From: Candidatus Pacearchaeota archaeon
GTDB taxonomy: Archaea > Nanobdellota > Nanobdellia > Pacearchaeales > GW2011-AR1
Direction of reading: 5' to 3'
Assembly (NCBI GenBank): GCA_041651235.1
Contig: JBAZJQ010000001.1
Span: 31,673 to 95,672, forward strand
DNA length: 64,000 nt
Every line of letters starts with the position of its first letter. Positions within the stretch are counted from its first letter, which is position 1. A model generated the notes under the pieces. It was not told the origin of the DNA. It did not search any database and worked only from the letters and a program-made list of their open reading frames with translations. Shown here in pieces: positions 3,340-62,393 of the stretch. A program made the translations under genes and the position numbers.

Positions 3340-3449
3340 AAAGAATTAAATAGGAGAAAATACTGATAAGAAAATATATTAATAATCCATTAAGACACAA
3401 GCTAAGCTGAGGATATGATTAAGATATTTAAAATAAAATAGAAAATAAT

Positions 3450-5126
3450 ATGAAAAAGAGGATGAATAAATTGGGGCTGAGTTTAATTGTTTCATATGTA
3501 CTTTTAGTTTCAATTGCAGTTGCACTTGGTGCAATTTCTTATGTATTTTTAAAAGAATATCCCAGTATAATAAAAGAACCTGTTGATTGCAAAGATGATA
3601 CTTCTATAACATTAGTAGGATACACAAATTCCAGCACAGAATTAAAACTAATAATAAGGAATAATGGTTTGTTTAATGTTAATGGATTTATGATTGCTGT
3701 TGGAAATATAACTGGAAGAGTTCCTATTGAAAAATTATGGAGTGCAGATGGTTCACCTACAAATCTAACTAAAGGAAGTTACAATTTTAAAAATCCTCTA
3801 AGACCTGAAGAATCGATTCAGACTATTTTTGTTAAAGAAGCTGGTTATGATGTAAAGAAGATACAACTGCAACCATTTATTATTGGAGAAAATGGAGACC
3901 AGATATTATGTTCAAAAAAAGTTATAACTCAAAAAGTTGATGCTTCACTAACTCCAATAGAAACCTGCGGGGATAATATTAAAGACCCTGGAGAAGATTG
4001 TGATGGAAGTGATTTTGGTGCGAGTTATGATGGAACTTGTGTGAGTTATAGTTCATCTGTATATTCTTCTGGGGATTTAAAATGCACTTTTGGTTGTTCA
4101 ATTAGCACTGTTAATTGTGTTTTAATTGGAGCTCCAGAAACATGCTCAGATGGAGTTCAAAATCAGGGAGAAATAGGAATAGATTGTGGAGGGCCTTGTA
4201 CTGCTTGCACGACTGCTCCAACATGTTCAGATGGAATTCAAAATCAGGGAGAAACAGGAATAGATTGTGGAGGGCCTTGTACTGCTTGTTCTCCAGCTGG
4301 CGCTTATATAAAATTCAAGACAAGTAATTTAAATTATCCAGATACTTCACAGATATACTATAATAATGGAACTTGTGGAATTAATTTAACAGAATATAGC
4401 CGTACTAATACTTGGTATAATGATGCTGGTGTAAGTTGCGATAATCAACTTGGTGCAGGAAATTTCCTTTTCAGTATACCTGGAATAGATATGTTCACTT
4501 ATTCAGGTAAACCTCTTTGCTCAAATTTAAGATTATATAAAGACGGGGATTTCCTTAATGTTTGTGGGAATAATGGAAACTATATTGGATACAAGAGATT
4601 TACAAAAACAGCGAATAAAATATCTCGTTTTTCAACAGATTCTAGCAAGGAAATAAGTTGCACAGCAACATGCTCAGATGGAATTCAAAATCAGTATGAA
4701 ACAGGTATTGATTGCGGAGGGCCTTGTACTGCTTGTGCTTATGTTAAATTCAGGACAAATGATTTAACTTATGATACTTCAGGATCTGCAATAGCATATA
4801 CTACCTCTACAGAGTGCAATGGTTTAACTAATTTAGAAAAATTTATTGGGGGAGCTAAAATTAATGACGCAGGAACTTGTTCGAGTACTTTTAGTTCTGC
4901 GGAGGGATATGTATTAGTATTTTCAAATATTCCCGGAGATATATCTCCTTATTCTGGGACAACTTATTTATATAAAATAAATAGTCCTTCATATGGGACC
5001 TATGCTTGGGTTTGCACTTATGATGCTTCACTAGGTAGACATATCTATAAAAAATATACTAAAGATGCTGGGACAATCTCCACAGATAGGTTATCAATAG
5101 ACCCAACTAAAGAAGTATCCTGTTAA
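3450..5126 (+). CDS. secreted Cys-rich repeat protein with N-terminal hydrophobic anchor or pilin-like signal
   Basis: 558 aa. N-terminus MKKRMNKLGLSLIVSYVLLVSIAVALGAI. Three copies of the 22-aa module CSDG(I/V)QNQGE(T/I)GIDCGGPCTAC, encoded by near-identical 69-bp DNA repeats. Confidence 0.6.
   Translation: MKKRMNKLGLSLIVSYVLLVSIAVALGAISYVFLKEYPSIIKEPVDCKDDTSITLVGYTNSSTELKLIIRNNGLFNVNGFMIAVGNITGRVPIEKLWSADGSPTNLTKGSYNFKNPLRPEESIQTIFVKEAGYDVKKIQLQPFIIGENGDQILCSKKVITQKVDASLTPIETCGDNIKDPGEDCDGSDFGASYDGTCVSYSSSVYSSGDLKCTFGCSISTVNCVLIGAPETCSDGVQNQGEIGIDCGGPCTACTTAPTCSDGIQNQGETGIDCGGPCTACSPAGAYIKFKTSNLNYPDTSQIYYNNGTCGINLTEYSRTNTWYNDAGVSCDNQLGAGNFLFSIPGIDMFTYSGKPLCSNLRLYKDGDFLNVCGNNGNYIGYKRFTKTANKISRFSTDSSKEISCTATCSDGIQNQYETGIDCGGPCTACAYVKFRTNDLTYDTSGSAIAYTTSTECNGLTNLEKFIGGAKINDAGTCSSTFSSAEGYVLVFSNIPGDISPYSGTTYLYKINSPSYGTYAWVCTYDASLGRHIYKKYTKDAGTISTDRLSIDPTKEVSC
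4139..4289 (+). repeat. two adjacent near-identical 69-bp intragenic repeats (Cys-rich module)
   Basis: 4139-4207 and 4221-4289 differ at only a few positions. A third copy lies at 4688-4756. The frame-shifted ORF 4115..4327 is an artefact of this repeat. Confidence 0.85.
4688..4756 (+). repeat. third copy of the 69-bp intragenic repeat
   Basis: acatgctcagatggaattcaaaatcag...ggagggccttgtactgcttg matches the copies at 4139 and 4221. Confidence 0.8.
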
Positions 5127-8405: not shown

Positions 8406-8417
8406 ATCTTTGATGTT

Positions 8418-8516
8418 TATAATCTATTAAGACATAAGATTTGCGGATGAGAAGATTAAAATGGTTATTATTAATTTGATGTTAGTAGATTCTTTGATTG
8501 TTTTATTAAGATATAA
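8418..8516. repeat. intergenic repeat family copy A (MITE-like or sRNA candidate)
   Basis: tataatctattaagacataag-a-tttgcggatgagaagattaaaatgg ... ttttattaagatat. Imperfect terminal inverted repeats. Lies between convergent genes. Confidence 0.6.
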
Positions 8517-8536
8517 ACATTTTAATTTATTATTAA

Positions 8537-12266: not shown

Positions 12267-13541
12267 ATGAGATTAAAAAAATCTTTTCAACTGGCCCTTA
12301 ATATTTTTGTCCACAGCAAATTGAGAAGCTGGTTAACTATTATTGGAATAATCATTGGAATTGCTGCAGTAGTTAGTATTATTTCTATGAGCCTTGGTGC
12401 TCAGCAGCAATTAGAAGAAAGACTTGGAAGTCTTGGAGCAGATATTCTTACAGTCAGCCCAGGAATGTCAAGAGCACAGGGAATTGGATTTGGAGGAGGA
12501 CCTATGGAGGAAAGAAGTTCATCTAGTTCTACTTCTAGTGACTCAAAAAATTTAACTGCAAAAGATGTTATGGTTTTGAAAAGTATTTCTAATGTAAAAT
12601 ATGTTATGGGAAGTGTATCTGGAAGAGCAGATGTAACTTATTCAAGTAAAACTGCAAAAGACCAAAGCATTAGCGGGGTTGATACTTCTATATGGAAGGA
12701 AATTACTACTGAAACACTAAGTTCTGGGAGATTTTTAACAGAGGGGGATATGTATTCAGTAGTGATAGGAGAAAATTTAGCTGAATCTACTTTTGATTCT
12801 GAAATATCCATAAACACTAAAATAATTATTGAAGGCAAGTCTTTTAATGTTGTTGGAATTCTTAGTGGAGGCAGAACAATCTACATGCCTATAGGTGCTG
12901 CTAGAATAGTCTTAGAAGATGTTGGAAATAATGAATTTAATTCTATCTCTGTAAAAATAGAAGATGTAAGTATCTCTGAAGATACAGTAACTGCGATTAC
13001 TAAAAAATTAATGATGGCCCGGGGAATAGTTTCTGAAAAAAAAGTTGATTTCTCGGTTACAAATCCCTCATCAATGCAGGAAACTATGGAAGAAACAATG
13101 AATACTATGACTCTTTTCTTGGGAGCAATAGCAGCAATTTCTTTATTAGTTGGAGCAATTGGAATTGCAAATACTATGTTCACTTCGGTTTTGGAAAAAA
13201 CAAAAGAGATAGGAATAATGAAAGCCATAGGTGCACAAAATAAAGATATTTTAGCTATTTTTCTTTTAAATTCAGCGTTAATAGGATTAATCGGGGGACT
13301 GGGAGGGGTAATTTTAGGAATAATTTCTTCAACTACTATAAACAGTTTTGCAGGAATAGGAAGTTCTGTTAGTGGTCCTGGAAGAGGAATGTTAGGGGCT
13401 CTTGGGAGCTCTTCATCAATTAGTTTTACACTTATTTTTGGGTCCTTGTTCTTTGCAGTTATAATTGGGATGATTGCCGGAGCAATTCCTGCTTATAGAG
13501 CATCTAAATTAAATCCAGTTGATGCTCTTAGATATGAATAA
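12267..13541 (+). CDS. ABC transporter permease, FtsX/MacB family
   Basis: N-terminal TM. Large extracytoplasmic domain. C-terminal FtsX-like four-helix region ending ...AYRASKLNPVDALRYE. Confidence 0.85.
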   Translation: MRLKKSFQLALNIFVHSKLRSWLTIIGIIIGIAAVVSIISMSLGAQQQLEERLGSLGADILTVSPGMSRAQGIGFGGGPMEERSSSSSTSSDSKNLTAKDVMVLKSISNVKYVMGSVSGRADVTYSSKTAKDQSISGVDTSIWKEITTETLSSGRFLTEGDMYSVVIGENLAESTFDSEISINTKIIIEGKSFNVVGILSGGRTIYMPIGAARIVLEDVGNNEFNSISVKIEDVSISEDTVTAITKKLMMARGIVSEKKVDFSVTNPSSMQETMEETMNTMTLFLGAIAAISLLVGAIGIANTMFTSVLEKTKEIGIMKAIGAQNKDILAIFLLNSALIGLIGGLGGVILGIISSTTINSFAGIGSSVSGPGRGMLGALGSSSSISFTLIFGSLFFAVIIGMIAGAIPAYRASKLNPVDALRYE

Positions 13542-16771: not shown

Positions 16772-16822
16772 CTACTGATATTAAGCTTAATCAACAGAAG
16801 TTAAGATGTTTAAATTTACATA
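16772..16822. repeat. partial copy of intergenic repeat (GATTAAGCTTAATC palindrome module)
   Basis: ctgatattaagcttaatcaacagaagttaagatgtttaaattta is near-identical to 59416-59459. Confidence 0.55.
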
Positions 16823-17253: not shown

Positions 17254-17283
17254 GAAGAGAAAATAATAAAAGAAATAATGATT

Positions 17284-17350
17284 AATAATCTCTACACTTA
17301 GATAGTTTGCAGATGAGGAGATTAAAATATTTTTGAGATTATTTATTGTG
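17284..17350. repeat. intergenic repeat family copy B
   Basis: aataatctctacacttagatagtttgcagatgaggagattaaaatat. Lies between convergent genes. Confidence 0.55.
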
Positions 17351-21357: not shown

Positions 21358-21397
21358 TTTTTTAAGTATTCGGAATATATTTGATTTTCTAACTTAT

Positions 21398-21522
21398 TTA
21401 TAATCTATTAGGACATTCGCTGATTTGAGGATAGAATTAAGATATTTATGCTGTTGATTATGGTTTATGAATAATATTCATCTTTAAATAATCTGCAGAT
21501 AGTATAATTAAGATGTTAATGA
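21398..21522. repeat. intergenic repeat family copy C (degenerate, composite)
   Basis: tttataatctattaggacattcgctgatttgaggatagaattaagatattt ... aataatctgcagatagtataattaagatgtt. Confidence 0.45.
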
Positions 21523-21608
21523 CAAAATAAAAATTAACTGAGGTTTTATTAGGATATAAATATTTTTTATTTCTGAAATATTTATAAAGATGTTTTCTAT
21601 GTATATTT

Positions 21609-24266: not shown

Positions 24267-24483
24267 ATACCCAGAACTATATTCTTGGTAATGTCAAAAT
24301 TTTATACCTTATGCAGATGATATAGTTTAATGCCAGTAGATAATATGTTTGCTTTAATAATCGGCTATAATTATTAAAGATGTATAGTTTATAGGCATAC
24401 TTTAAAACAGTTATAATATTCGAGTATAGAAACCTTAATAAATATAAACTTTCTTTTTACAAAATAGAAAAAAATTAAAAGAA

Positions 24484-25589: not shown

Positions 25590-25613
25590 TTAATAAAAGT
25601 GAAAGGAGGTAAA

Positions 25614-26504
25614 ATGAAAAAAATAATATTAAGTATTTTAATGATTAGTCTATTTAGTGTTGTATTGGTTTCAGCTTTCTGGCCTTTTGATGGAGCTTCA
25701 ATAACTGGTAATGCGGTAGTTTCTATTTGTGAAGAAGTTAATGGAGGAATTGTTATGAAATCAGTTAATAAATATAATAATTTAATTGTAGAACCAATAA
25801 CTTATAACAAATGCAGTTCTATAAGTAAAAAAACTTTAATTAAGTATTCTTGTATAGAAGGTACTAAAAAGCAAACTGAAAGAATTAAATGTGAAGGAGA
25901 ATGTGCAATTGATCCAGAAACTTATCTAGCTTATTGTAAAGATGAAGCTATAACTTGTACTGAACTTCAAAGTGGAAAGGGAGTAAAGGATCAAACAGGA
26001 AAGAAATATGAAAATTCTTGCAACAATGATATCTTTAATGGATATACTTGTGTGGATAATATCCCCACTTTAGCTACTCCTCAATATTGTAAAACTCAAG
26101 GAAAAGTCTGTACTGAAAAAGGATGCAAAGGAAAAGGAGAATGTTTTATGGATGAAGATAAAATAATGGCAATTGCATCAACAGGAATTATTGAGCTTAA
26201 ATCGAATACATGCCAAGATTCTACAAATGGGTTTAATTATGAATGTTCAGCTACTGGAAATCTAAAAGAAACTGCTGTTAATTGCGGTTCAACAAAAGAA
26301 TGCCAAAAAGTAGAAGGTATTGCAAAATGTGTAGCTAAAACAACCCCTACAACTACACCGACAACTACAACTCCTACTACAACCCCTACAACTACACCGA
26401 CAACTACAGCTACTCAAACAACTGACGAGAAATTAACTGCTTTGATAACTGCACTTTGTACAGATGCAAGTTTAAAAACAAAATTAGGGAGTCTTTGTAA
26501 TTAA
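25614..26504 (+). CDS. secreted Cys-rich protein with Thr/Pro-rich linker
   Basis: RBS AAGGAGGT then ATG 25614. Signal peptide. About 30 Cys. Linker TTPTTTPTTTTPTTTPTTTPTTTATQTT. Track start 25599 is a GTG. Confidence 0.55.
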   Translation: MKKIILSILMISLFSVVLVSAFWPFDGASITGNAVVSICEEVNGGIVMKSVNKYNNLIVEPITYNKCSSISKKTLIKYSCIEGTKKQTERIKCEGECAIDPETYLAYCKDEAITCTELQSGKGVKDQTGKKYENSCNNDIFNGYTCVDNIPTLATPQYCKTQGKVCTEKGCKGKGECFMDEDKIMAIASTGIIELKSNTCQDSTNGFNYECSATGNLKETAVNCGSTKECQKVEGIAKCVAKTTPTTTPTTTTPTTTPTTTPTTTATQTTDEKLTALITALCTDASLKTKLGSLCN

Positions 26505-26686
26505 TTTTTATTGTATTTCTTTTCATTTATTTTTTTATTTATAATATAGAGAAATCCATCGAGAAATATTTATACAAACTTTCTTTAAAAAGACAAGTTT
26601 GAACAAAGCAATCTTTCTTTTTAGAAAAAATACAAGCTTGAACAAAGAAAAACTAAGTTTGATACAAAAAGTTAAATCAAAAGCAA

Positions 26687-26712
26687 ATAAATATTTCTCG
26701 AGAAATATTTAT
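26687..26712. promoter_or_regulatory. 26-bp perfect palindrome about 25 bp upstream of the 26737 gene, embedded in short direct repeats
   Basis: ataaatatttctc|gagaaatatttat. cgagaaatatttata is also present at 26560-26574. Three ACAAGTTTGAACAAAG-like repeats lie between. Confidence 0.4.
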
Positions 26713-26736
26713 AAAGTGTTTTTATATTGATATAAT

Positions 26737-29049
26737 ATGGAAAAGAGGGTAATTGGAATATTTATTTTTTTAATAGTTTTAGTTAGCTTGAATTTTATAA
26801 GTGCTGATGTTGGAACCTGTACTTACCCTATACTTTATATTTCAAATACAACAAATGCTCATGCATCTACAACAGGTAGTTATTCTCAGAAAGTTTGTCT
26901 TCCAGGGACATCTAGTCCAATAAATGGAGCAGGACCAATTGCATTATACTTATCTTCTGCTGGAAATGCTCATGCTTCTTATTCAAATAGTGCCTGGACT
27001 CCAATTCAAGTTGGAAGTAATTATTCTTCTTGTCAATTAGGTGCAACTTGTACTGCAGAGCAAGATTGCTTGTTAAGTTTATCTTCTCAAGATAATGCCC
27101 ATGTAGGAAATTGTGCTGCATATCCTTCAAATAAAATTTGCTGTACAAAAAAAGTAACAACCTCCTGCACTACAGAAAACACAGCAGCAGGAAATTGCGC
27201 TGATGGAGTTGATAATGATTGTGATGGATTAACTGATTGTGGAGAAACTACTGATTGTGCAACAGCAGCTAATTGCGTTGCTGATTGTGAAATAACAGAT
27301 GCTTATTTTGTAGATTCTGATGATAATGTTTTATTGGGTGATGCTGAAGTTTATTTGGGAGATAGTGTTTATCTAACTGTTGAAGGGTCTTCCGGGTGCA
27401 ATGGAAAATCTGTAAATTTCTCTATAAAAGAAGCTGATTGTGTTTTAGGAATTTGCAGTCTAGCTAATACTCCTTTTACAATTGCAAATTCTGTCTTTGG
27501 AGCAGATAATACCTTGCAGAAGGAATGGGCAACTCAATGGGTTGATGATTCTGGAGGAACAAATATTAATCCAGAATATGTTTTTATAACTACTTTACTT
27601 TCTGATGCGAGTGAAACAAAAAATTCTAAGGATTATAGTGGTGGAAAGTCAAGTATTAAATTATTAAAATGTGGTGATGGCACTTGCTCTGAAACTTTTG
27701 GAGAAACTTGTTCTAATTGTCCTGGAGATTGCGGGGTTTGCACTTGTACATACACTGTTTACCATAATCATACTGCATGTTATGGAGATAATATATATTG
27801 GTATGATGATTGTGGAATTAAAAATGATCTTTTCCAAAATTGTGGTACAGATACTTGTACTTGGAGTGCTTGGACTTGTTTAGATAGTGATACAAAAACT
27901 CACTCACGATCCGGAACTAATTATGGATGTTCAAATAATGCGTGTACTGTTGGTTCATGTACTGGAACTGAAACAGAAAACTGTCTTTCTGGGCAAATCT
28001 GCAGTTTAGGAGAATGTATTACTCCGCCATCTGACAGATACTGGGCAAATACAAATGGAATTGAAATAGAAGATGCGCAGTTGGGAGATACTGTATTGAT
28101 GATTGATGAATCTTTAACAACAGGAACTCATTTATTTGAAATATATGAAAAAGATGGCTTAACAGCAGATGAGGAAATAAGAACTGGAACAAATGGAATT
28201 AATTCTGAAATAATAAATGGATATGCTACTGGAACTTGGAAGATTTTACAAGAAGACTTAGCAAAAACCTCAGATTATGATAATTTCGAGTTTGAAGTTG
28301 ACGAAGGAGCTAGATCTAAAGACTTGAAGATACTTGCATCTGTTTCAAACTCAAAACCTGTTGCAGTTATAACTGCCCCTCCTGCAAATAATAAATATTC
28401 AATTAGTAAAAATAGCCCTAATCCTTCAACAGGAAATATTGATTTCAAACAAGAAAGCTATGATGCTGATGATTTATTAAATATAAGATGGGATTATGGA
28501 GATGATTATAATGAAAGTTGTACAGATTATAGTTTACTTACTCCAAATAAATGTGACAAAATTCATGCATATACTTCAAGTGGTTCAAAGCTAATTAAAC
28601 TTACAGCAAAAGAAATGACTAGAATACAATCAGATACAGATACAAGATATGTGTTTGTTTATCAAGAAGGAATAAATGTATTTTCAGTTATTAGTGACCC
28701 AATTACTTATGGGAAAGTTGCAAAAATGTATGGAGGAGATAGTTATGTTAGTGATTGTGATACTGCTACTCCTTGTGATACTAGTAGTGGTGAATACCAA
28801 GTTAATCCTGTTGCTGGAAGCGGAAATCCTGTATTATGTTGTAAAGATAGGCCTAAACCTGAAACTGGAGGAAATTATGACTTTTTAATGCAATGGATAT
28901 TTGATGGAGATTCTACTAAAGCAATACTTGGAAAATGGACTACTAATTATGATAACGTTGTTAATTTTACTTATTTTTTTCAAGAATCAGGAGAACATGA
29001 AGCAAATTTAAAAATTGGATTTATACCTTGCGGCGGTTCTTGCCCTTAA
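26737..29049 (+). CDS. large secreted Cys-rich surface protein
   Basis: 770 aa. Signal peptide. Many Cys clusters including CGDGTCSETFGETCSNCPGDCGVC. Confidence 0.55.
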   Translation: MEKRVIGIFIFLIVLVSLNFISADVGTCTYPILYISNTTNAHASTTGSYSQKVCLPGTSSPINGAGPIALYLSSAGNAHASYSNSAWTPIQVGSNYSSCQLGATCTAEQDCLLSLSSQDNAHVGNCAAYPSNKICCTKKVTTSCTTENTAAGNCADGVDNDCDGLTDCGETTDCATAANCVADCEITDAYFVDSDDNVLLGDAEVYLGDSVYLTVEGSSGCNGKSVNFSIKEADCVLGICSLANTPFTIANSVFGADNTLQKEWATQWVDDSGGTNINPEYVFITTLLSDASETKNSKDYSGGKSSIKLLKCGDGTCSETFGETCSNCPGDCGVCTCTYTVYHNHTACYGDNIYWYDDCGIKNDLFQNCGTDTCTWSAWTCLDSDTKTHSRSGTNYGCSNNACTVGSCTGTETENCLSGQICSLGECITPPSDRYWANTNGIEIEDAQLGDTVLMIDESLTTGTHLFEIYEKDGLTADEEIRTGTNGINSEIINGYATGTWKILQEDLAKTSDYDNFEFEVDEGARSKDLKILASVSNSKPVAVITAPPANNKYSISKNSPNPSTGNIDFKQESYDADDLLNIRWDYGDDYNESCTDYSLLTPNKCDKIHAYTSSGSKLIKLTAKEMTRIQSDTDTRYVFVYQEGINVFSVISDPITYGKVAKMYGGDSYVSDCDTATPCDTSSGEYQVNPVAGSGNPVLCCKDRPKPETGGNYDFLMQWIFDGDSTKAILGKWTTNYDNVVNFTYFFQESGEHEANLKIGFIPCGGSCP

Positions 29050-34145: not shown

Positions 34146-34216
34146 GGGCAAGGGGACCCCCCTTCCATATCCCCGAAGTTATTCTCATGGTTTTTCATCT
34201 TTTTATTATATTTATT

Positions 34217-34300
34217 TATAATCTATTAAGACATAAGTTTTGCAGATGAGTTGATTAAGCTTAATCTTTATCCTCTTTGTTGTTTGTCTTAATAAGATAT
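34217..34300. repeat. intergenic repeat family copy D
   Basis: tataatctattaagacataagttttgcagatgagttgattaagcttaatc ... gtcttaataagatat. The ends are imperfect inverted repeats (12/15). Confidence 0.6.
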
Positions 34301-34397
34301 TGATAAATTTTATTATACTTATTAAAAGTAAAGATAGTTTTTAAATTATTAGTATATGATAATTTATAATAAAGCTTAAAAATAGAATTCGGATAGA

Positions 34398-34973: not shown

Positions 34974-35046
34974 AAATAATCTTGCTAAAATAAAGAATCC
35001 TATAAAAATTAATTATATTTATATAATCTAAATTAATAATTTTATT

Positions 35047-37524
35047 ATGAAAAAAAGAGGGCAGAGTCAAATTATTACAACTATTTTGATAATCTTATTA
35101 GTCCTTGTTGCAATTATTGTTATTTGGAATGTTGTTTCAGGAGTTATAAAAACTAGTTCTGATAAAATAACAATAGCCCCGTTTGTGAACCAAGCTGAAA
35201 TTGAATCTTTAACATTACAAAACGGAGGGGTAACTGCTTTAGTTGGAGTTAAGAGAACAGGGGGAGATGATGAATTAGCTGGATTAAAAATCATATTTGA
35301 AGATGGAAATAAAAATATTTATATTTATGAAAATTTAACAGATTATCCTAAAAATTTAGAAACTAAATATTATACTATCCAAAACACAGATACTAAACCA
35401 GAAATTTCTAATTTCAGTATTGTAGAAAAAACATCTGTTGTTCTTTTAGTAATGGATAGTACTAAAGATAAAACCAATTGTACTGCTGAAGCCAATGTTA
35501 TTACTTGTGGGACTTGGGTATGTGGAAATAAAATAAATAATTGCGGACAAAGTGTAAGCTGTGGAAATTGCAGTGGAAATTGCAATAATGGGAATTGTGA
35601 ATTGATTAATATTGGATATTCCAATAATATCACCCAATATGGAATTACTTGGCATTTTGATAAACAAATGGAATTTGGGACTTATGCAAACGGCGACTAT
35701 TGGGTTGTTGGTCCAGTGAATATTACTCAAATTGAACCGGAACCTGTTTGCGACATAAGTAATGGAAGGCATGGAACTATGATTAATCCAAGATTTAATA
35801 ACCAGCAAGGATATGATGCACGAGCACCAGGATATAATCTTACCTTATGCAAAGTAAAAGCTAGTGCATCTCCAGGAGATTCAGTTATTTCAACAATTAG
35901 CTTGCCTAACCAGATTGGATTTACATTTGTTAAATCTGCATCTGTATTAACTATTGTGGATGTACCTCAATCTTCAGATAAATTCAGACCTCCTTATACA
36001 AGACCAACAAGAATAAAAGAAAGCTCGCAAGATAATTTGGTTTATTCCTCCAATAATATTAATTATGAGCTTCTTCCAAAATTAATGCCAATTTCAGCTA
36101 CCCCCCTTTTATCCCAAACAGAAAAAAAATTTGAAAGAGTTTGGATAGAGCATTTTGAAGGATGGGAACTTGGAAGAATCCAGCCATATGATAATATGGC
36201 AGACTATGGCAGAGAGAATAGTGTGGATGTATCTGAAGCATCTTTACAATTACTTCTTAATTATTCAAATCAGGACAAGAAAAAACTTTTAATTGGATTT
36301 ATGCAATATGGGATCGATCTCTATGGAATTTATCTTGATAATGGAGAATGGCATCCGGATGGAGGTATATTTATGGGGAGAAAGTGGCCTTTATTATTTA
36401 CTGGGATAATGTTGAATAATTCTATCAAAAATATAGAGATGAATCCAGAAAGATTTCAAGAAGATGGCCAAACCTTTTATGTTAGCCCCCCTGAAATTTA
36501 TTCTATTCCCTATTATTTAAATTCAAATGGATTATACTCTACATTATCTGAAGGGAAAGCAAAAATAACAAATTCAAGTAATGTTGTGGAGGGGATAAAC
36601 ACATTATGGAAAAGTTCAGGTATAATCGAAGGAGACAGCATAATTGGAACTGATGGAAAAAAATATACCTGTATAACTAAACATATTTCAAATGAATCTA
36701 CAAGGCCTATATCTGGCAATGTCTGGCAAAATTATTGGATATTGAATAATAATGCCCAATATGTCTTTAGCTGGGCAAATAATTCAGAATATAAAATTGC
36801 ATTTTTTGGGGTTGAAAATGATTCTTATGAGGCTTATAACCCTAATGGAAAAGCTCACGTTATAAGTAAAATAATCGACGATACTCATCTTCTTCTTGAA
36901 GATAACTATCGTGGAAATACAGACTTGAGCGGAAATGCAAATTTTAAAATAGGAAATATTTTAGTTTATTATGGTCATGGCAATCCTTCTAAAGTATTTG
37001 ACTTTACAGAATATACAAATAATAATCTTGGACTTCCTGAGTGGGGATTACAACATGCAACTCAGCCGGGAATTGATGGATTAAATTGGTGGGATGCTGA
37101 TTATAGAACATTAAATGGAGCTTCTTGGCCAGGGACTATTCTTGCGGTGCTTATCCTAGACCAAAATACTTCTTCAAGAAAATTATGGGATCATAATTCT
37201 TTATTTGATTATCAAGATAGATATATGGAAGTAGAATCTATAGATTTTAGTATCTGGGATGGTGTTGGGAAATACAATCGAGCTCTAAAAAATCAGTTTA
37301 TTGAAGGTATGTGGGATACATATAGAAAAAATTATGGATGTATTTGGGTTAGAAACAATAAGACAGATATTTATTCTCAGGGGCATTATGAATGTGAAAA
37401 TAAAAATATTTCATGCGCTTGGCAAGCTGAAATGTGTGTAGGGTGTATCCAAGTTTCAAGCTGTCCCTCTTATCCTAACCAAAGAGCATATGATTATGAC
37501 CCTTGTAATTTGGGATGTAATTAA
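35047..37524 (+). CDS. large pilin-like adhesin (class III signal KRG|QSQIITTILIILLVLVAIIV) with Cys-rich modules
   Basis: 825 aa. N-terminus is a classic archaeal prepilin signal with Gln at +1. CGNKINNCGQSVSCGNCSGNCNNGNC cluster. Confidence 0.65.
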   Translation: MKKRGQSQIITTILIILLVLVAIIVIWNVVSGVIKTSSDKITIAPFVNQAEIESLTLQNGGVTALVGVKRTGGDDELAGLKIIFEDGNKNIYIYENLTDYPKNLETKYYTIQNTDTKPEISNFSIVEKTSVVLLVMDSTKDKTNCTAEANVITCGTWVCGNKINNCGQSVSCGNCSGNCNNGNCELINIGYSNNITQYGITWHFDKQMEFGTYANGDYWVVGPVNITQIEPEPVCDISNGRHGTMINPRFNNQQGYDARAPGYNLTLCKVKASASPGDSVISTISLPNQIGFTFVKSASVLTIVDVPQSSDKFRPPYTRPTRIKESSQDNLVYSSNNINYELLPKLMPISATPLLSQTEKKFERVWIEHFEGWELGRIQPYDNMADYGRENSVDVSEASLQLLLNYSNQDKKKLLIGFMQYGIDLYGIYLDNGEWHPDGGIFMGRKWPLLFTGIMLNNSIKNIEMNPERFQEDGQTFYVSPPEIYSIPYYLNSNGLYSTLSEGKAKITNSSNVVEGINTLWKSSGIIEGDSIIGTDGKKYTCITKHISNESTRPISGNVWQNYWILNNNAQYVFSWANNSEYKIAFFGVENDSYEAYNPNGKAHVISKIIDDTHLLLEDNYRGNTDLSGNANFKIGNILVYYGHGNPSKVFDFTEYTNNNLGLPEWGLQHATQPGIDGLNWWDADYRTLNGASWPGTILAVLILDQNTSSRKLWDHNSLFDYQDRYMEVESIDFSIWDGVGKYNRALKNQFIEGMWDTYRKNYGCIWVRNNKTDIYSQGHYECENKNISCAWQAEMCVGCIQVSSCPSYPNQRAYDYDPCNLGCN

Positions 37525-40610: not shown

Positions 40611-41015
40611 TTAAAATAAAACATCAATAATCTCTTCTGTTGATAAAACTCTTATTTTATCTTGGGCTTTTAATAAAGAGTCATTACTCCAAAGAAAACA
40701 GGAATATTTTAAGCATAAAGCAATAAATTCTGTATCTCCTTTGTCGGGGGATAATTTTTCTGCTTCTTTTAAAAAATCATAATAATCTTTTTTATCTATA
40801 AAATTAATTATCTCTTTTAAATTGTTTATTTCTATATCAAACTCTTTTCTTGTTAGATTTGTTTTATTTATTATTTCTTTGGAATATTTTTCTAATTCTT
40901 TTAAAGTGATTATTGGCGATATAAGTTCGAGATTAGAAGTAGTTAAAAGTTTTCTTGTTATAGATTTTTTCCAAAAAAAACTAAACAGAATATTAGTATC
41001 TACTACTATTTTCAT
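40611..41015 (-). CDS. vapC: PIN-domain toxin (VapC-like)
   Basis: MKIVVDTNILFSFF has the N-terminal PIN acidic motif. 134 aa. Confidence 0.65.
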   Translation of the reverse strand: MKIVVDTNILFSFFWKKSITRKLLTTSNLELISPIITLKELEKYSKEIINKTNLTRKEFDIEINNLKEIINFIDKKDYYDFLKEAEKLSPDKGDTEFIALCLKYSCFLWSNDSLLKAQDKIRVLSTEEIIDVLF

Positions 41016-41236
41016 TTTCTCCCTTCTCTTACTAAATTAACTGCCCATTCATTAAACTCTTTCTCTTTTTTTAGCTGGCTTAATAGCTCTTCTTTTATAG
41101 CAAGTTTTCTAGCTTTCTCGCTAATACATTGTCTTACTAAACCACTCCAATTAACTTCAGGGAATTTTTTCATTAATTCTCTTACTTCTTCTGGAACTGA
41201 TATTGTTATGCTTACCATTTTTATGTGTAAAAACAT
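41012..41236 (-). CDS. vapB: VapB-like antitoxin (ribbon-helix/AbrB-type), 4-nt overlap with vapC
   Basis: 74-aa ORF (or from MVSITISVPEEV at 41218). Small DNA-binding-like protein immediately upstream of the PIN gene. Confidence 0.5.
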   Translation of the reverse strand: MFLHIKMVSITISVPEEVRELMKKFPEVNWSGLVRQCISEKARKLAIKEELLSQLKKEKEFNEWAVNLVREGRK

Positions 41237-42903: not shown

Positions 42904-42927
42904 TATTATGTTGCGATATAAATGATT

Positions 42928-43030
42928 TTTATAATATACCATTCTGATACATTTTGCAGATGAGAAGATTAAAATGGTTATGATAAACAAAAAAGAAACA
43001 GATGGCTTGTTGTTTGTTCTATTAAGATAT
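42928..43030. repeat. intergenic repeat family copy E
   Basis: ...cattttgcagatgagaagattaaaatggttatgataa ... gttctattaagatat. Lies between convergent genes. Confidence 0.6.
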
Positions 43031-43043
43031 TAATATTTTTTAT

Positions 43044-45092: not shown

Positions 45093-45131
45093 TTTTTATT
45101 TGAATTTGTGAGTAATATTTAATTTATTTTG

Positions 45132-45208
45132 ATAATCTATTAGGACAAACTTTTTGCAGATGATAAAATGAATATATTTATGATTAACTGCGTTATTTAT
45201 TAGATTGT
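45132..45208. repeat. intergenic repeat family copy F
   Basis: ataatctattaggacaaactttttgcagatgataaaatg ... ttatttattagattg. Confidence 0.55.
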
Positions 45209-45226
45209 ATTTATTATTAATTTTTG

Positions 45227-46533: not shown

Positions 46534-46608
46534 ATGGCAAACGATTTTGAAGACTTCGAAGATTTTGATGAAGAAGATGAAGAAGTCGAAGAAGATGAAG
46601 AAGAATAA
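46534..46608 (+). CDS. possible 24-aa hyper-acidic micro-ORF (MANDFEDFEDFDEEDEEVEEDEEE)
   Basis: GGGGG RBS-like at 46523-46527, 6 nt before the ATG. Lies in the mre11/MTase intergenic space. Very speculative. Confidence 0.15.
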   Translation: MANDFEDFEDFDEEDEEVEEDEEE

Positions 46609-46611
46609 AAT

Positions 46612-47181
46612 TTAATTTGTTTTATTTTTTATTTTTAATATATATAGTTGTTCAAAAAATAATTTTTGATTAGATAATTCTTGGGCATGATAATTATATC
46701 TTTTTAGATATTGTTTTATTATTTCGGGTTTTGATAAACTAGATATAAGTAGTAGAATGATTCCTTTACTTGGTAAATAGGATTTTGCTTGCTCTAAAAA
46801 TCTGATTATAATTTCACAACCTTTTTTTCCTCCTGTTGTTGCTAATCTAGAATCTTTAGGTTCTCTTTTATCTAAAGGAAGATAGGGAGGATTAAATATA
46901 ATTAAATCAAATTTTTCATATTCATTTTTGGATTTTTTAATAGTTTTAAATAAATTAGAATGTATTGATTGAAAGCCTTGCTGTTTTAAATGATTTACTG
47001 CTTCTTTATTAATATCTGCTGTTAAAATATTCTTAAAACCTAAATCTCTGCAAGTTTGTGCTTGTATTCCTGAGCCACTTCCCATATCTAAAATACTAAT
47101 ATTTTTATTTTTTAGTTTAGATAAATAATCTATTAATACTTTTTGCAAAAGGTAAGAATCTTCTCTTGGTTCATATATCAT
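46612..47181 (-). CDS. HemK/Mtq2-like protein N5-glutamine methyltransferase
   Basis: SAM motif ILDMGSGSGI. NPPY motif LIIFNPPYLP. 189 aa. Confidence 0.75.
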   Translation of the reverse strand: MIYEPREDSYLLQKVLIDYLSKLKNKNISILDMGSGSGIQAQTCRDLGFKNILTADINKEAVNHLKQQGFQSIHSNLFKTIKKSKNEYEKFDLIIFNPPYLPLDKREPKDSRLATTGGKKGCEIIIRFLEQAKSYLPSKGIILLLISSLSKPEIIKQYLKRYNYHAQELSNQKLFFEQLYILKIKNKTN

Positions 47182-54404: not shown

Positions 54405-54591
54405 TAATTTCTATTCTAAATTGAGTTTAAATAAATTATCATTTTATACTATGCAAATAGTCTAGATTCGATTATCGCAATCTTTTTAAACCCTTTAATC
54501 CTATGAAATTTATAGGAGAAAATACAGTCTGATTTCAAAGGAATAACTTCTTTGATTATTTTCCTGAAATTGAGACAAAATAGATTATAAT

Positions 54592-59337: not shown

Positions 59338-59385
59338 AAACACTCAAAAATCATTATTATTACTGGAAACATTAAATTTAATATT

Positions 59386-59520
59386 TATAATCTATTAAAA
59401 CAAACAACAAGACAACTGATGATTAAGCTTAATCAACAGATGCTAAAATGTTTAAATTATAGATTATTAATTAATAACCTGCAAAACTAAGATGTTGTGC
59501 AGATGAGATGATTAAAATAG
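59386..59520. repeat. intergenic repeat family copy G (two modules)
   Basis: tataatctattaaaac...ctgatgattaagcttaatcaacagatgctaaaatgtttaaatta...tgtgcagatgagatgattaaaatag. Confidence 0.55.
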
Positions 59521-59572
59521 GGTTGAGTATTACCAAAAAATCAAATAAATAAAATAATAAAAACTCCCAAAA

Positions 59573-62268: not shown

Positions 62269-62393
62269 ACTTTTGATAATATCTAATTTAGAACAATGAA
62301 AAATCTGTTCATTAAAATTTTAATTATATCTCCGGTAAAATGTTTGTCTTAATAAGCTATAAATATTTTTAGAATTATAAAATTAGTAGAATT

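Follow-up and report, generated by a model that had tools for sequence, protein, structure and literature searches.

An old intergenic repeat family with MITE-like features and a promoter-like end in Pacearchaeota

Some DPANN genomes carry miniature transposable elements bounded by inverted repeats (MITEs) at very high density, with 105-146 per Mb recorded in one census, including 105 per Mb in a Woesearchaea genome (PMC11602168). Here we describe a family of short intergenic repeats in a 64-kb stretch of DNA (the window, 64,000 nucleotides of contig JBAZJQ010000001.1) from a Candidatus Pacearchaeota archaeon, in which an initial annotation had seen either a MITE or a family of promoter-bearing small-RNA genes. 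Compared on general features and not on sequence, the family is like prokaryotic MITEs, those of the DPANN census included (PMC11602168), in its size, its non-coding and intergenic character, its inverted ends, its patchy distribution and its density. Extrapolated from our counts, the window has a density of about 200 copies per Mb, and the loci of a second genome, H43-bin046_1 (hereafter H43), one of about 350 per Mb. The family is unlike MITEs generally in its strong orientation bias, and in that neither a target duplication nor a parent insertion sequence (IS) with the same ends was found. We give roughly a 50% probability to the reading that this is an old non-autonomous mobile repeat, similar to MITEs or to repetitive extragenic palindromic (REP) sequences, which carries an inward-facing promoter and has spread in the intergenic DNA of some Pacearchaeota. 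We mean by this that the element works like a MITE or a REP-type repeat; strict membership in either class is not claimed.

Promoter-carrying MITEs are known in bacteria, for example the Correia elements, and are able to drive transcription (PMC10969869). The Correia elements of Neisseria, also called Correia repeat enclosed elements (CREE) or Neisseria miniature insertion sequences (NEMIS), are MITEs some 100-155 bp long, and their terminal inverted repeats measure 26 bp. The Pacearchaeota elements share with them a short, non-coding, intergenic form, inverted ends, a copy number that is high for a small genome, promoter sequences, and subtypes that differ internally. However, Correia elements have a TA target duplication and promoters of the sigma-70 type, whereas we found no duplication and the promoter-like sequence is an inward-pointing archaeal TATA box. 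Furthermore, it is the internal core, and not the terminal repeat, that different lineages have in common here.

A second likeness is to the REP sequences and to their compound forms, the bacterial interspersed mosaic elements (BIMEs) and REPINs, all mobilised by REP-associated tyrosine transposases (RAYTs). These too are imperfect palindromes that often stand after genes or between convergent genes, form tandem or mosaic arrays, and lack a target duplication. In contrast, REPs are stable GC-rich hairpins of 20-40 bp, and the elements described here are AT-rich, 90-150 bp long and fold weakly. RAYTs are not known from outside bacteria. From an archaeon, Methanocaldococcus jannaschii, Suyama, Lathe and Bork reportedly described in 2005 the MJRE palindromic repetitive elements, with more than 100 copies and no known transposase. 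The MJRE are likewise short, old, diverged, palindromic extragenic repeats of an archaeon, in sequences and a host lineage unrelated to ours; they are not known to have a promoter-like end or an orientation bias.

The repeat family is real, with motifs far above chance in the window. Its core, TTTGCRGATGAGRAGATTAAAATGG, has four matches with up to three mismatches (at 8440, 17306, 42953 and 59496), against 0.00 expected; the box TATAATCTATTAAGAC has seven with up to two mismatches, all on the plus strand, against 0.23; and the 14-bp palindrome GATTAAGCTTAATC, annotated initially as part of a submodule, has three against 0.06. By reading every intergenic region and applying a core profile we found 12-13 copies of 50-165 bp in the window. 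Every one is intergenic: no copy lies within an open reading frame (ORF), and no ORF is conserved among the copies. Together they make up about 2% of the sequence and fill about one third of the longer intergenic spacers, a share that is higher in the H43 genome. The initial annotation's family of at least nine copies was thus borne out. Its seven full and four partial copies were all confirmed on reading each region; the positions in its list were right, but one copy, at 3379-3437, had been missed.

Each unit is built of two arms of about 45 bp, imperfectly inverted, with a variable centre between them. The left arm runs from a terminal box over a spacer of about 10 nt into the conserved core, (T)TTGCAGATGAGNNGATTAARAT, and in the right arm the inverted box comes after AATCAACAGATG. 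Aligned with one another, the window-type copies give a consensus that begins on the left with TTTATAATCTATTAAGACA, about 8 nt, TTTGCAGATGAGNNGATTAARAT and RTTTATGA, continues through a variable 0-35 nt, and ends on the right with a T-rich tract (TTGTTGTTTGT) and the inverted box (TTATTAAGATAT). The terminal box divides the window copies into two subfamilies, with TATAATCTATTAAGACA in most copies and an H43-type box, TTGGTAATGT, in one or two relics. Because relics with the H43-type box lie inside the window, the two box types represent subfamilies of one family and are not strictly lineage-specific.

The terminal inverted repeats of the window subfamily, TATAATCTATTAAGAC and GTCTTAATAAGATAT, are alike at 12 of 15 positions, as had been annotated, correctly, for the copy at 34217-34300. 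As a property of the whole family, MITE-like terminal inverted repeats hold for about half of the window copies (8415-8518, 21397-21562, 34215-34302, 42926-43033, 45131-45210 and, on the minus strand, 62283-62367); the others have no recognizable inverted right end and are one-armed, truncated or mosaic. Conservation along the element is block-wise (standard deviation of column conservation 0.184, against 0.089 under uniform decay). Copies are well diverged, with a median pairwise identity of 68% and a maximum of 79%.

Outside the window, when one genome of each species was scanned for the exact pattern, the core turned up five times in a Nanoarchaeota/Pacearchaeota metagenome-assembled genome from the Hainich aquifer, H43-bin046_1, and a scan of metagenomes located it in further low-GC DPANN contigs. 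On one 146-kb contig (L024), the terminal box is the same as in the window. A full-length profile recovered 25 complete copies of 114-151 bp from about 70 kb of H43 contigs. These copies run on the left from the box ATATTGGTAATGT over 12 nt, GTTATG, CAGATGAGNN and GATTAAG to a variable centre, and on the right from CTTAATC over AACAGATG, 2-3 nt, CATAAC and 12 nt to the inverted box; most full copies have the terminal inverted repeats ATATTGGTAATGT / ACATTACCAATAT. Tandem arrays of two or three units are frequent, as in L011 (5031, 5178 and 5298) and L020 (997 and 1118), and also in L004, L009 and L018. Two copies at different loci (L035 4985 and 5806) have a common, subfamily-specific internal segment and form the most similar pair, at 79% identity. 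An element also stands 3' of the H43 ortholog of the peptidase gene that precedes one of the window copies, which may be coincidence because most H43 intergenic spacers are filled with elements. In viral contigs, the core pattern had a single match, in a coding region, and two box patterns matched 74 loci, none of them with the family, so that we regard these 74 as chance matches.

The H43 elements have further repeats within and around them. In one (L042 ~12950-12975, which is L012 ~1130-1190), the variable centre is replaced by three tandem copies of a 20-nt repeat, ATGAATCATAATCCATAAAT. Additional repeat modules lie beside many elements (L009 6715-6745, L041 4440-4470, L011 7184-7262 and 7376-7420), including one that begins AGCCCTTTTNGCTAGAAG and a hairpin, CAGGATTTATCCTGACATGAT. 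The intergenic DNA of H43 is a mosaic of several repeat families.

Relatives that share the gene order of the window offer orthologous sites for comparison. Peptidase M2, encoded 5' of the copy at 42926-43033, has orthologs of 59-66% identity in many Pacearchaeota, and four relatives keep the order OapC, CCA enzyme, TrmB, SPP, aCPSF1, proteasome, peptidase, rad50 and mre11. Over aCPSF1, mre11 and TrmB, the DNA of one of these relatives (L048) has 76-80% identity to that of the window. These four loci, about 74 kb in total, contain zero family members, all profile matches having E > 1. The spacer from the peptidase gene to the next gene is 140 nt in the window, where it holds an element, versus 3, 19, 8 and 39 nt in the four relatives, where it holds none. 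Likewise, the rad50-mre11 spacer is 134 nt in the window versus 76 nt in L048 and 1 nt in L050, and in the alignment to L048 the additional DNA coincides with the element. The family is patchy, and judged from these spacers the window copies look like insertions. Such presence/absence polymorphism at orthologous sites was seen between distant relatives only. At the level of strains there was none: two other assemblies of the same genome (L045 and L046) do not differ from the window, and Hainich contigs that are duplicates of each other show 99.8-100% identity and no indels.

How the copies face their neighbours, and what their left ends look like, is best read against the promoters of the host. 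At least 14 window genes have a TATA box (TTTATAA, TTTAAAT or TTTATAT) that starts 27-29 nt 5' of the ATG, for example upstream of 9612, 10107, 11166, 26737, 32456, 35047, 41305, 50676, 61084 and 63194, and a Shine-Dalgarno-like sequence is rare among the window genes. This spacing indicates that the mRNAs are leaderless and that a TATA box starts about 28 nt before the transcription start. In the repeats, the window-type box TTTATAAT starts 27-28 nt before the G of GCRGATGAG, matching the TATA-to-ATG spacing of the leaderless genes, and the earlier reading of this distance as that from an archaeal TATA box to a start holds. T-rich tracts lie 35-70 nt downstream in the window-type copies. Box spacing and T-rich tract together make the left end indistinguishable from a normal promoter aimed into the element, and transcription of the element from its own left end is plausible on this basis. 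The right arm consistently has a shifted version, ATATCTTA, instead of ATAATCTA, and a canonical TATA box is found in only two of the four right arms compared. The box of the H43 subfamily, ATTGGTAATGT, is unlike the usual TATA box of that genome.

Pooled over the window and the related loci, copies between co-directional genes are 21 times sense and 3 times antisense, and a further 13 copies lie between convergent and 6 between divergent genes. The initial annotation was right that several copies separate convergent genes (8415-8518, 17282-17350 and 42926-43033 are window examples of the pooled 13), but orientation relative to the neighbours, which it had called inconsistent, is strongly biased. 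We also considered the element as a 5' untranslated region (UTR) or leader of the downstream gene and rejected this. A TATA box of their own stands 27-29 nt ahead of the ATG in the downstream genes, which are leaderless, and the element therefore does not serve them as a 5' UTR. In H43, elements start 7-40 nt past the stop codon of the preceding gene, and about 28 nt ahead of its ATG the gene after the element retains a TATA box of its own.

The patchy spread, the empty orthologous sites, the uniform size, the inverted ends, the tandem arrays and the shared internal segment fit a non-autonomous transposable repeat. Copies would have arisen by transposition, catalysed in trans by an enzyme outside the data examined, and the conserved blocks would be binding sites of this enzyme or of a host protein. 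In the window-type copies, the left box would be a working archaeal TATA box with a start at the G of GCAGAUGAG, and the predicted transcript would run rightwards to the T-rich tract 35-70 nt on, making each copy a small rightward transcription unit. Copies firing against neighbouring genes, such as the upstream gene, would be selected against, and a rightward promoter would in this way account for the 21:3 sense bias. The elements are also short (below about 500 bp), non-coding, multi-copy and interspersed, as MITEs are. Altogether, the MITE half of the initial annotation is mostly supported, by the intergenic, multi-copy, patchy occurrence of short units with inverted ends and tandem arrays, and is better supported than the small-RNA half; a target duplication and a partner transposase, two of the checks it had proposed, were not found.

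Several observations weigh against a mobile repeat of this kind. A scan of 20 H43 copies at offsets 0-8 and lengths 2-9, controlled by non-cognate flanks, revealed target-site duplications (2-9 bp) at none of the offsets, a weak test on diverged copies. Its best result among 648 combinations was a 2-nt match observed 7 times versus 2.3 expected, with low power given copies of about 68% identity and AT-rich flanks. There is no transposase in the window, which covers about 64 kb of a contig of at least 648 kb, and no autonomous partner with matching ends in the fragments of other genomes examined; one may lie elsewhere. The copies are old, with no near-identical pairs among them (68% median and 79% maximum identity) and no trace of recent activity. 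Lineages differ less in the internal core than in the terminal box, the reverse of a classical MITE. The 21:3 bias is not expected of a symmetric cut-and-paste element without added selection. The insertion polymorphism is one between distant relatives only, and the family may instead have been lost from those relatives. Finally, that at least 2% of apparently useless DNA is kept in a streamlined genome argues for some function.

A transposase was seen near a copy in one place only. L020 1-990 is an IS4/IS5-type insertion sequence (DDE_Tnp_1, PF01609, E 8e-18). Its ends appear to be AGTTCCA...TGGAACT, and two tandem elements stand 11 nt away from it. We rejected this insertion sequence as the autonomous partner, its ends being unlike the element termini.

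It is tempting to see in each copy a self-contained small-RNA gene with its own TATA promoter and a start at GCAGAUGAG, the family having grown by gene duplication. Such an RNA would have at its 5' end a handle of 25 nt that is conserved, then a 3' part of 20-40 nt that varies and could play an antisense or guide role, and finally a T-rich end. We consider this unlikely, though it has a good deal in its favour: the spacing from TATA box to core, equal to that from TATA box to ATG in leaderless genes; the T-rich tracts downstream in window-type copies; the several copies between convergent genes, where a 5' UTR role is impossible; a core that is near-identical across genomes whose orthologous proteins are about 62% identical; and the block-wise conservation together with an orientation bias that suggests an effect at the level of transcription. 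However, the family is missing from the four related genomes with the same gene order, the inverted promoter-like box in the right arm and the uniform tandem arrays fit a DNA repeat better, and the H43 box ATTGGTAATGT does not resemble the usual TATA box of its genome. Within the window, the variable parts have no significant complementary targets: the longest guide-like complementarity is 16 nt, versus up to 15 nt for shuffled sequence, and one such match is in the sense direction.

Structure also speaks against a small-RNA gene. Rfam gave zero matches at the gathering score, and with the cut-off relaxed to E 10 it still matched no copy; RNAalifold found zero consensus pairs in 12 H43 copies. 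In a chimera test on 25 copies, cognate arms fold no better than chimeric ones (-18.15 versus -18.08 kcal/mol, permutation p 0.45). The best candidate helix, P1 (GTTATG/CATAAC plus an extension), shows no covariation: it is 63% paired (0.634) versus 65% (0.653) with partners shuffled, and where it varies most, the bases on its two sides change independently of each other (T-A 8, A-A 6, T-T 5, A-T 2). Folding z-scores are mostly near zero. Their mean is -1.1 for H43, with few strongly palindromic copies; the eight full-length window-type copies (six from the window, two from L017 and L024) have values of 0.12, -2.75, 0.19, -1.29, -1.70, 0.02, -1.12 and 1.19, and three predicted transcripts have -0.79, -0.50 and 0.11. 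Neither RNA nor single-stranded DNA secondary structure is conserved, and the conserved blocks are kept as sequence, not as base pairs. With no match in Rfam, no consensus pairs and no covariation, a structured small-RNA gene is not supported, and the small-RNA reading survives only as a promoter-driven, unstructured transcript.

Among known small RNAs, those of the box C/D type come closest. CAGAUGA approaches the C box (RUGAUGA) and CAGA the D box (CUGA), and the predicted transcripts would be 45-70 nt long; in a drawn hairpin, CAGAUG opposite CAGAUG produces a tandem G·A motif that resembles the box C/D K-turn. Unlike in box C/D RNAs, however, both boxes are off consensus, neither the C-D'-C'-D order nor the 12-nt spacing is present, a 3' CAGA is lacking from many window copies, and Rfam reports no C/D family. 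Moreover, the guides in box C/D RNAs, about 12 nt long, vary from member to member, whereas the sequence after the putative C box (NNGAUUAARAU) is conserved here.

We rejected a number of structured or coding candidates. A box C/D or K-turn RNA can be drawn from GCA[GAU]GA and CAGAUGC in some H43 copies, but the closing stem is without covariation and the 3' partner is missing from most window copies. An H/ACA-like hairpin (a lower stem of GAUUAA/UUAAUC, then ACA) does not have its pairing maintained. Strings like CUGAUGAG recall the hammerhead ribozyme, but helix II, the GAAA box and helix III are lacking and U4 is an A in most copies. Against a long-hairpin RNA or DNA stand the test with chimeric arms, the folding z-scores and the counts of pairs. 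Small ORFs that begin with the AUG in GAUUAAAAUG fail because this codon is AUG, AUA or AUU depending on the copy and the predicted peptides are unrelated. Integron attC sites would lie 3' in promoterless cassettes beside an integrase gene and have their inner repeats in the order R'' (RYYYAAC) ... R' (GTTRRRY), opposite to the GTTATG ... CATAAC found here, and the flanking genes are housekeeping genes with promoters of their own (exosome, proteasome, rad50/mre11, RtcB, aCPSF1).

A variant in which mobility and RNA are combined would make the copies mobile, promoter-bearing small-RNA genes, spread like a transposon and not arrayed. Each would yield an RNA of 45-90 nt that has a 25-nt handle (GCAGAUGAGNNGAUUAARAU), bound to a DPANN protein partner, and a copy-specific 3' guide segment. 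This idea agrees with the geometry of the promoter, the T-rich ends, a handle that is conserved across lineages and the bias in orientation. No positive evidence points to a guide function, and close relatives do not have the family. We regard it as a long shot.

The arms themselves suggest another mechanism, in which folded single-stranded DNA is moved by a Y1 transposase, RAYT or IS200/IS605-type as in palindrome-associated transposable elements (PATEs), or by a tyrosine recombinase. Here a CAGATG/CAGATG mismatch would be the recognition feature. CAGATG is a direct repeat at mirror positions of both arms, kept in both subfamilies, and in a hairpin the pair would read C-G, A-T, G·A, A·G, T-A, G-C. 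The missing target-site duplication, the tandem clustering and the same-strand orientation within contigs (all 7 of 7 window boxes on the plus strand) agree with such a mechanism. The hairpins, however, are weak, unconserved and inconsistent, most z-scores being near 0 and the arms having no compensatory changes, and the elements have clear terminal inverted repeats, which IS200/IS605 derivatives lack. No Y1 transposase was found among the window proteins and the few ORFs of related loci that were checked, and orientation follows the neighbouring gene no less closely than the contig strand (for example 62283-62367, a minus-strand copy that follows a minus-strand gene, and L009 44 and 176 on the plus strand). 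Single-stranded transposition of this type is in our judgement very unlikely.

Conservation of sequence, not of structure, would be expected too if the blocks were sites, recruited at many intergenic places and not mobile, for a host protein that binds DNA, perhaps a global regulator or a factor that organises the chromosome. The core lies at about +1 to +25 of the promoter-like box, where archaeal repressors often bind, and the copies are strictly intergenic. On the other side, what is repeated is the whole unit of 90-150 bp, which has inverted ends and occurs in tandem arrays; relatives that share the genes and their order do not have the family; and many copies lie between convergent genes, with nothing there to regulate. 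We see little probability in this explanation, and retain the promoter-bearing mobile repeat as the preferred reading.

The copies of the window differ in how much of the unit they retain. Three are full window-type units on the plus strand. The copy at 8415-8518, between convergent genes, has the left end GTTTATAATCTATTAAGACA, a core at 8440-8464, a T-rich tract and the inverted right end TTATTAAGATATAAAC; its RNA folding z-score is 0.12. At 34215-34302, between divergent genes, the box is followed by the core GCAGATGAGTTGATTAAG, the central palindrome GATTAAGCTTAATC, a T-rich tract and the inverted right end GTCTTAATAAGATAT. This copy was also found as inverted repeat I1, and is the only one in the window with a clearly negative folding z-score (-2.75). 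The copy at 42926-43033, between the convergent peptidase M2 and rad50 genes, has the TATA box TTTTTATAAT, a core at 42953-42977, the 3' motif AACAGATGG, a T-rich tract and the inverted right end CTATTAAGATAT.

Other window-type copies are degenerate or composite. In the rad50-mre11 spacer, the plus-strand copy at 45131-45210 is antisense to both neighbours and has the box GATAATCTATTAGGAC, a degenerate core, GCAGATGATAAAATGAA, and the inverted right end TTATTAGATTGTAT. The copy at 17282-17350 (plus strand, convergent genes) pairs a degenerate box, TTAATAATCTCTAC, with an intact core at 17306-17330 (profile E 3e-7) and a short inverted match to the left end at 17335-17348; its z-score is -1.7. 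The only minus-strand copy, 62283-62367, lies 3' of the minus-strand S2 gene and has the box TTTATAGCTTATTAAGAC (62346-62363, minus strand), a degenerate core, CCGGAGATATAATTAAAAT, inverted repeats I4 and I7, and a z-score of 0.02. At 21397-21562 (plus strand), where a single copy had been annotated at 21398-21522, a copy is indeed present, but it is a double or mosaic unit with the box TTTATAATCTATTAGGAC, degenerate cores at 21427-21451 and 21504-21522, and an inverted right box further on, at 21543-21562. The copy at 59384-59534 (plus strand) is likewise present but is a mosaic and not the full copy described earlier for 59386-59520: the box TTTATAATCTATTAAAAC is followed by a right-half palindrome module (59410-59460) and then by a left-half core (59496-59520), with profile matches at 59476-59534 (E 1.5e-7) and 59413-59464 (E 0.004, H43 profile positions 73-125).

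The remaining plus-strand copies are relics or partial. The one overlooked earlier, 3379-3437, came from repeat families D1 and D2 and has a degenerate box, TTAATAATCCATTAAGAC (2 mismatches), and a variant core, GCTGAGGATATGATTAAGATATTTA (core profile E 4e-4), without a right arm. The core once listed alone at 24309-24325 belongs to a decayed H43-type copy, 24284-24421, with its own terminal box, CTTGGTAATGTC, at 24284, then 13 nt and CTTATGCAGATGA, and a right-arm remnant, GGCATACTTTAAAAC, at 24394-24408; its match to the full-length profile of H43 covers positions 5-42 (E 0.006). For the partial copy at 2621-2644, the core was confirmed (CTTGCTGATGAGGGAATTAAAATGTTTATGAG, 2620-2652; core profile E 2e-5) within a unit at 2594-2693 that has a possible H43-type left box, ATATTGATAAGGT, and a possible inverted right box, ATATACTAATATAT, at 2680-2693; its membership in the second subfamily is weakly matched (H43 full-length profile, E 0.11). 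At 16772-16820 the right-half palindrome module, CTACTGATATTAAGCTTAATCAACAGAAGTTAAGATGTTTAAAT, stands alone; its palindrome has 1 mismatch, and it matches the H43 element profile weakly, at positions 68-133 (E 0.33). One more degenerate copy may lie on the minus strand at 54480-54590, with the box TATAATCTATTTTGTC (54589-54574) abutting the ATG of the proteasome alpha gene and a weak core-like sequence, AGGATTAAAGGGTTTA, nearby.

The window has a G+C content of about 29% and a gene content of archaeal housekeeping functions: exosome subunits, proteasome, aCPSF1, RtcB, the CCA-adding enzyme, rad50/mre11 and type IV pilus genes. One of its proteins has a 100% identical match in a Candidatus Pacearchaeota metagenome-assembled genome, encoded on a contig of 647,740 bp. 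Its only real Rfam match, at 1408-1668 on the plus strand, is to the archaeal signal recognition particle (SRP) RNA (RF01857) over the full model length (positions 1-317), with E 1.2e-13 and 70.2 bits, under the gathering threshold of 96.5; this is probably a divergent DPANN SRP RNA. Directly downstream of the copy at 3379-3437, the ORF 3450-5126 encodes 558 amino acids with no Pfam match and contains three copies, 89-91% identical, of a Cys-rich 74-nt module (approximately TCSDGIQNQGETGIDCGGPCTAC) at 4138-4211, 4219-4292 and 4666-4739; its product is probably secreted or exposed at the surface. A toxin-antitoxin-like module, formed by a PIN-domain gene paired with a ribbon-helix-helix gene, lies at 40611-41236 on the minus strand between the proteasome and peptidase genes, and is absent at that place in the same-gene-order relatives L047, L048 and L050.

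The window contains other repeats as well. At 26560-26720, 5' of the ORF 26737-29049, a separate and unrelated system consists of two copies of CTCGAGAAATATTTATA that flank two 39-nt direct repeats (26587-26625 and 26626-26664), with related sequence at 2720-2772, within the start of ORF 2704. ORFs 2704 and 35047 are 78% identical to each other across 63 nt of promoter and start region (2651-2713 and 34994-35056), and a promoter and N-terminus may have been duplicated between them. Two tandem repeats are coding: one of 12/15 nt, Thr/Pro-rich, at 26335-26424 in ORF 25599-26504, and one with a 9-nt period, acidic (D/E/F), at 46542-46612 in the small ORF that precedes mre11.

What does such a family mean for its hosts? 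DPANN genomes are very small and have almost no spare DNA, yet this repeat family takes up about 2% of the window. If its left end works as a promoter, ready-made transcription starts are scattered over the genome and could rewire or disturb the expression of neighbouring genes; one copy lies antisense within the rad50-mre11 pair. Repeats of this kind can also break metagenomic assemblies, and they could serve as lineage markers for uncultured archaea. The family is no new kind of system; it extends a known phenomenon, MITE-like repeats, to a family in Pacearchaeota.

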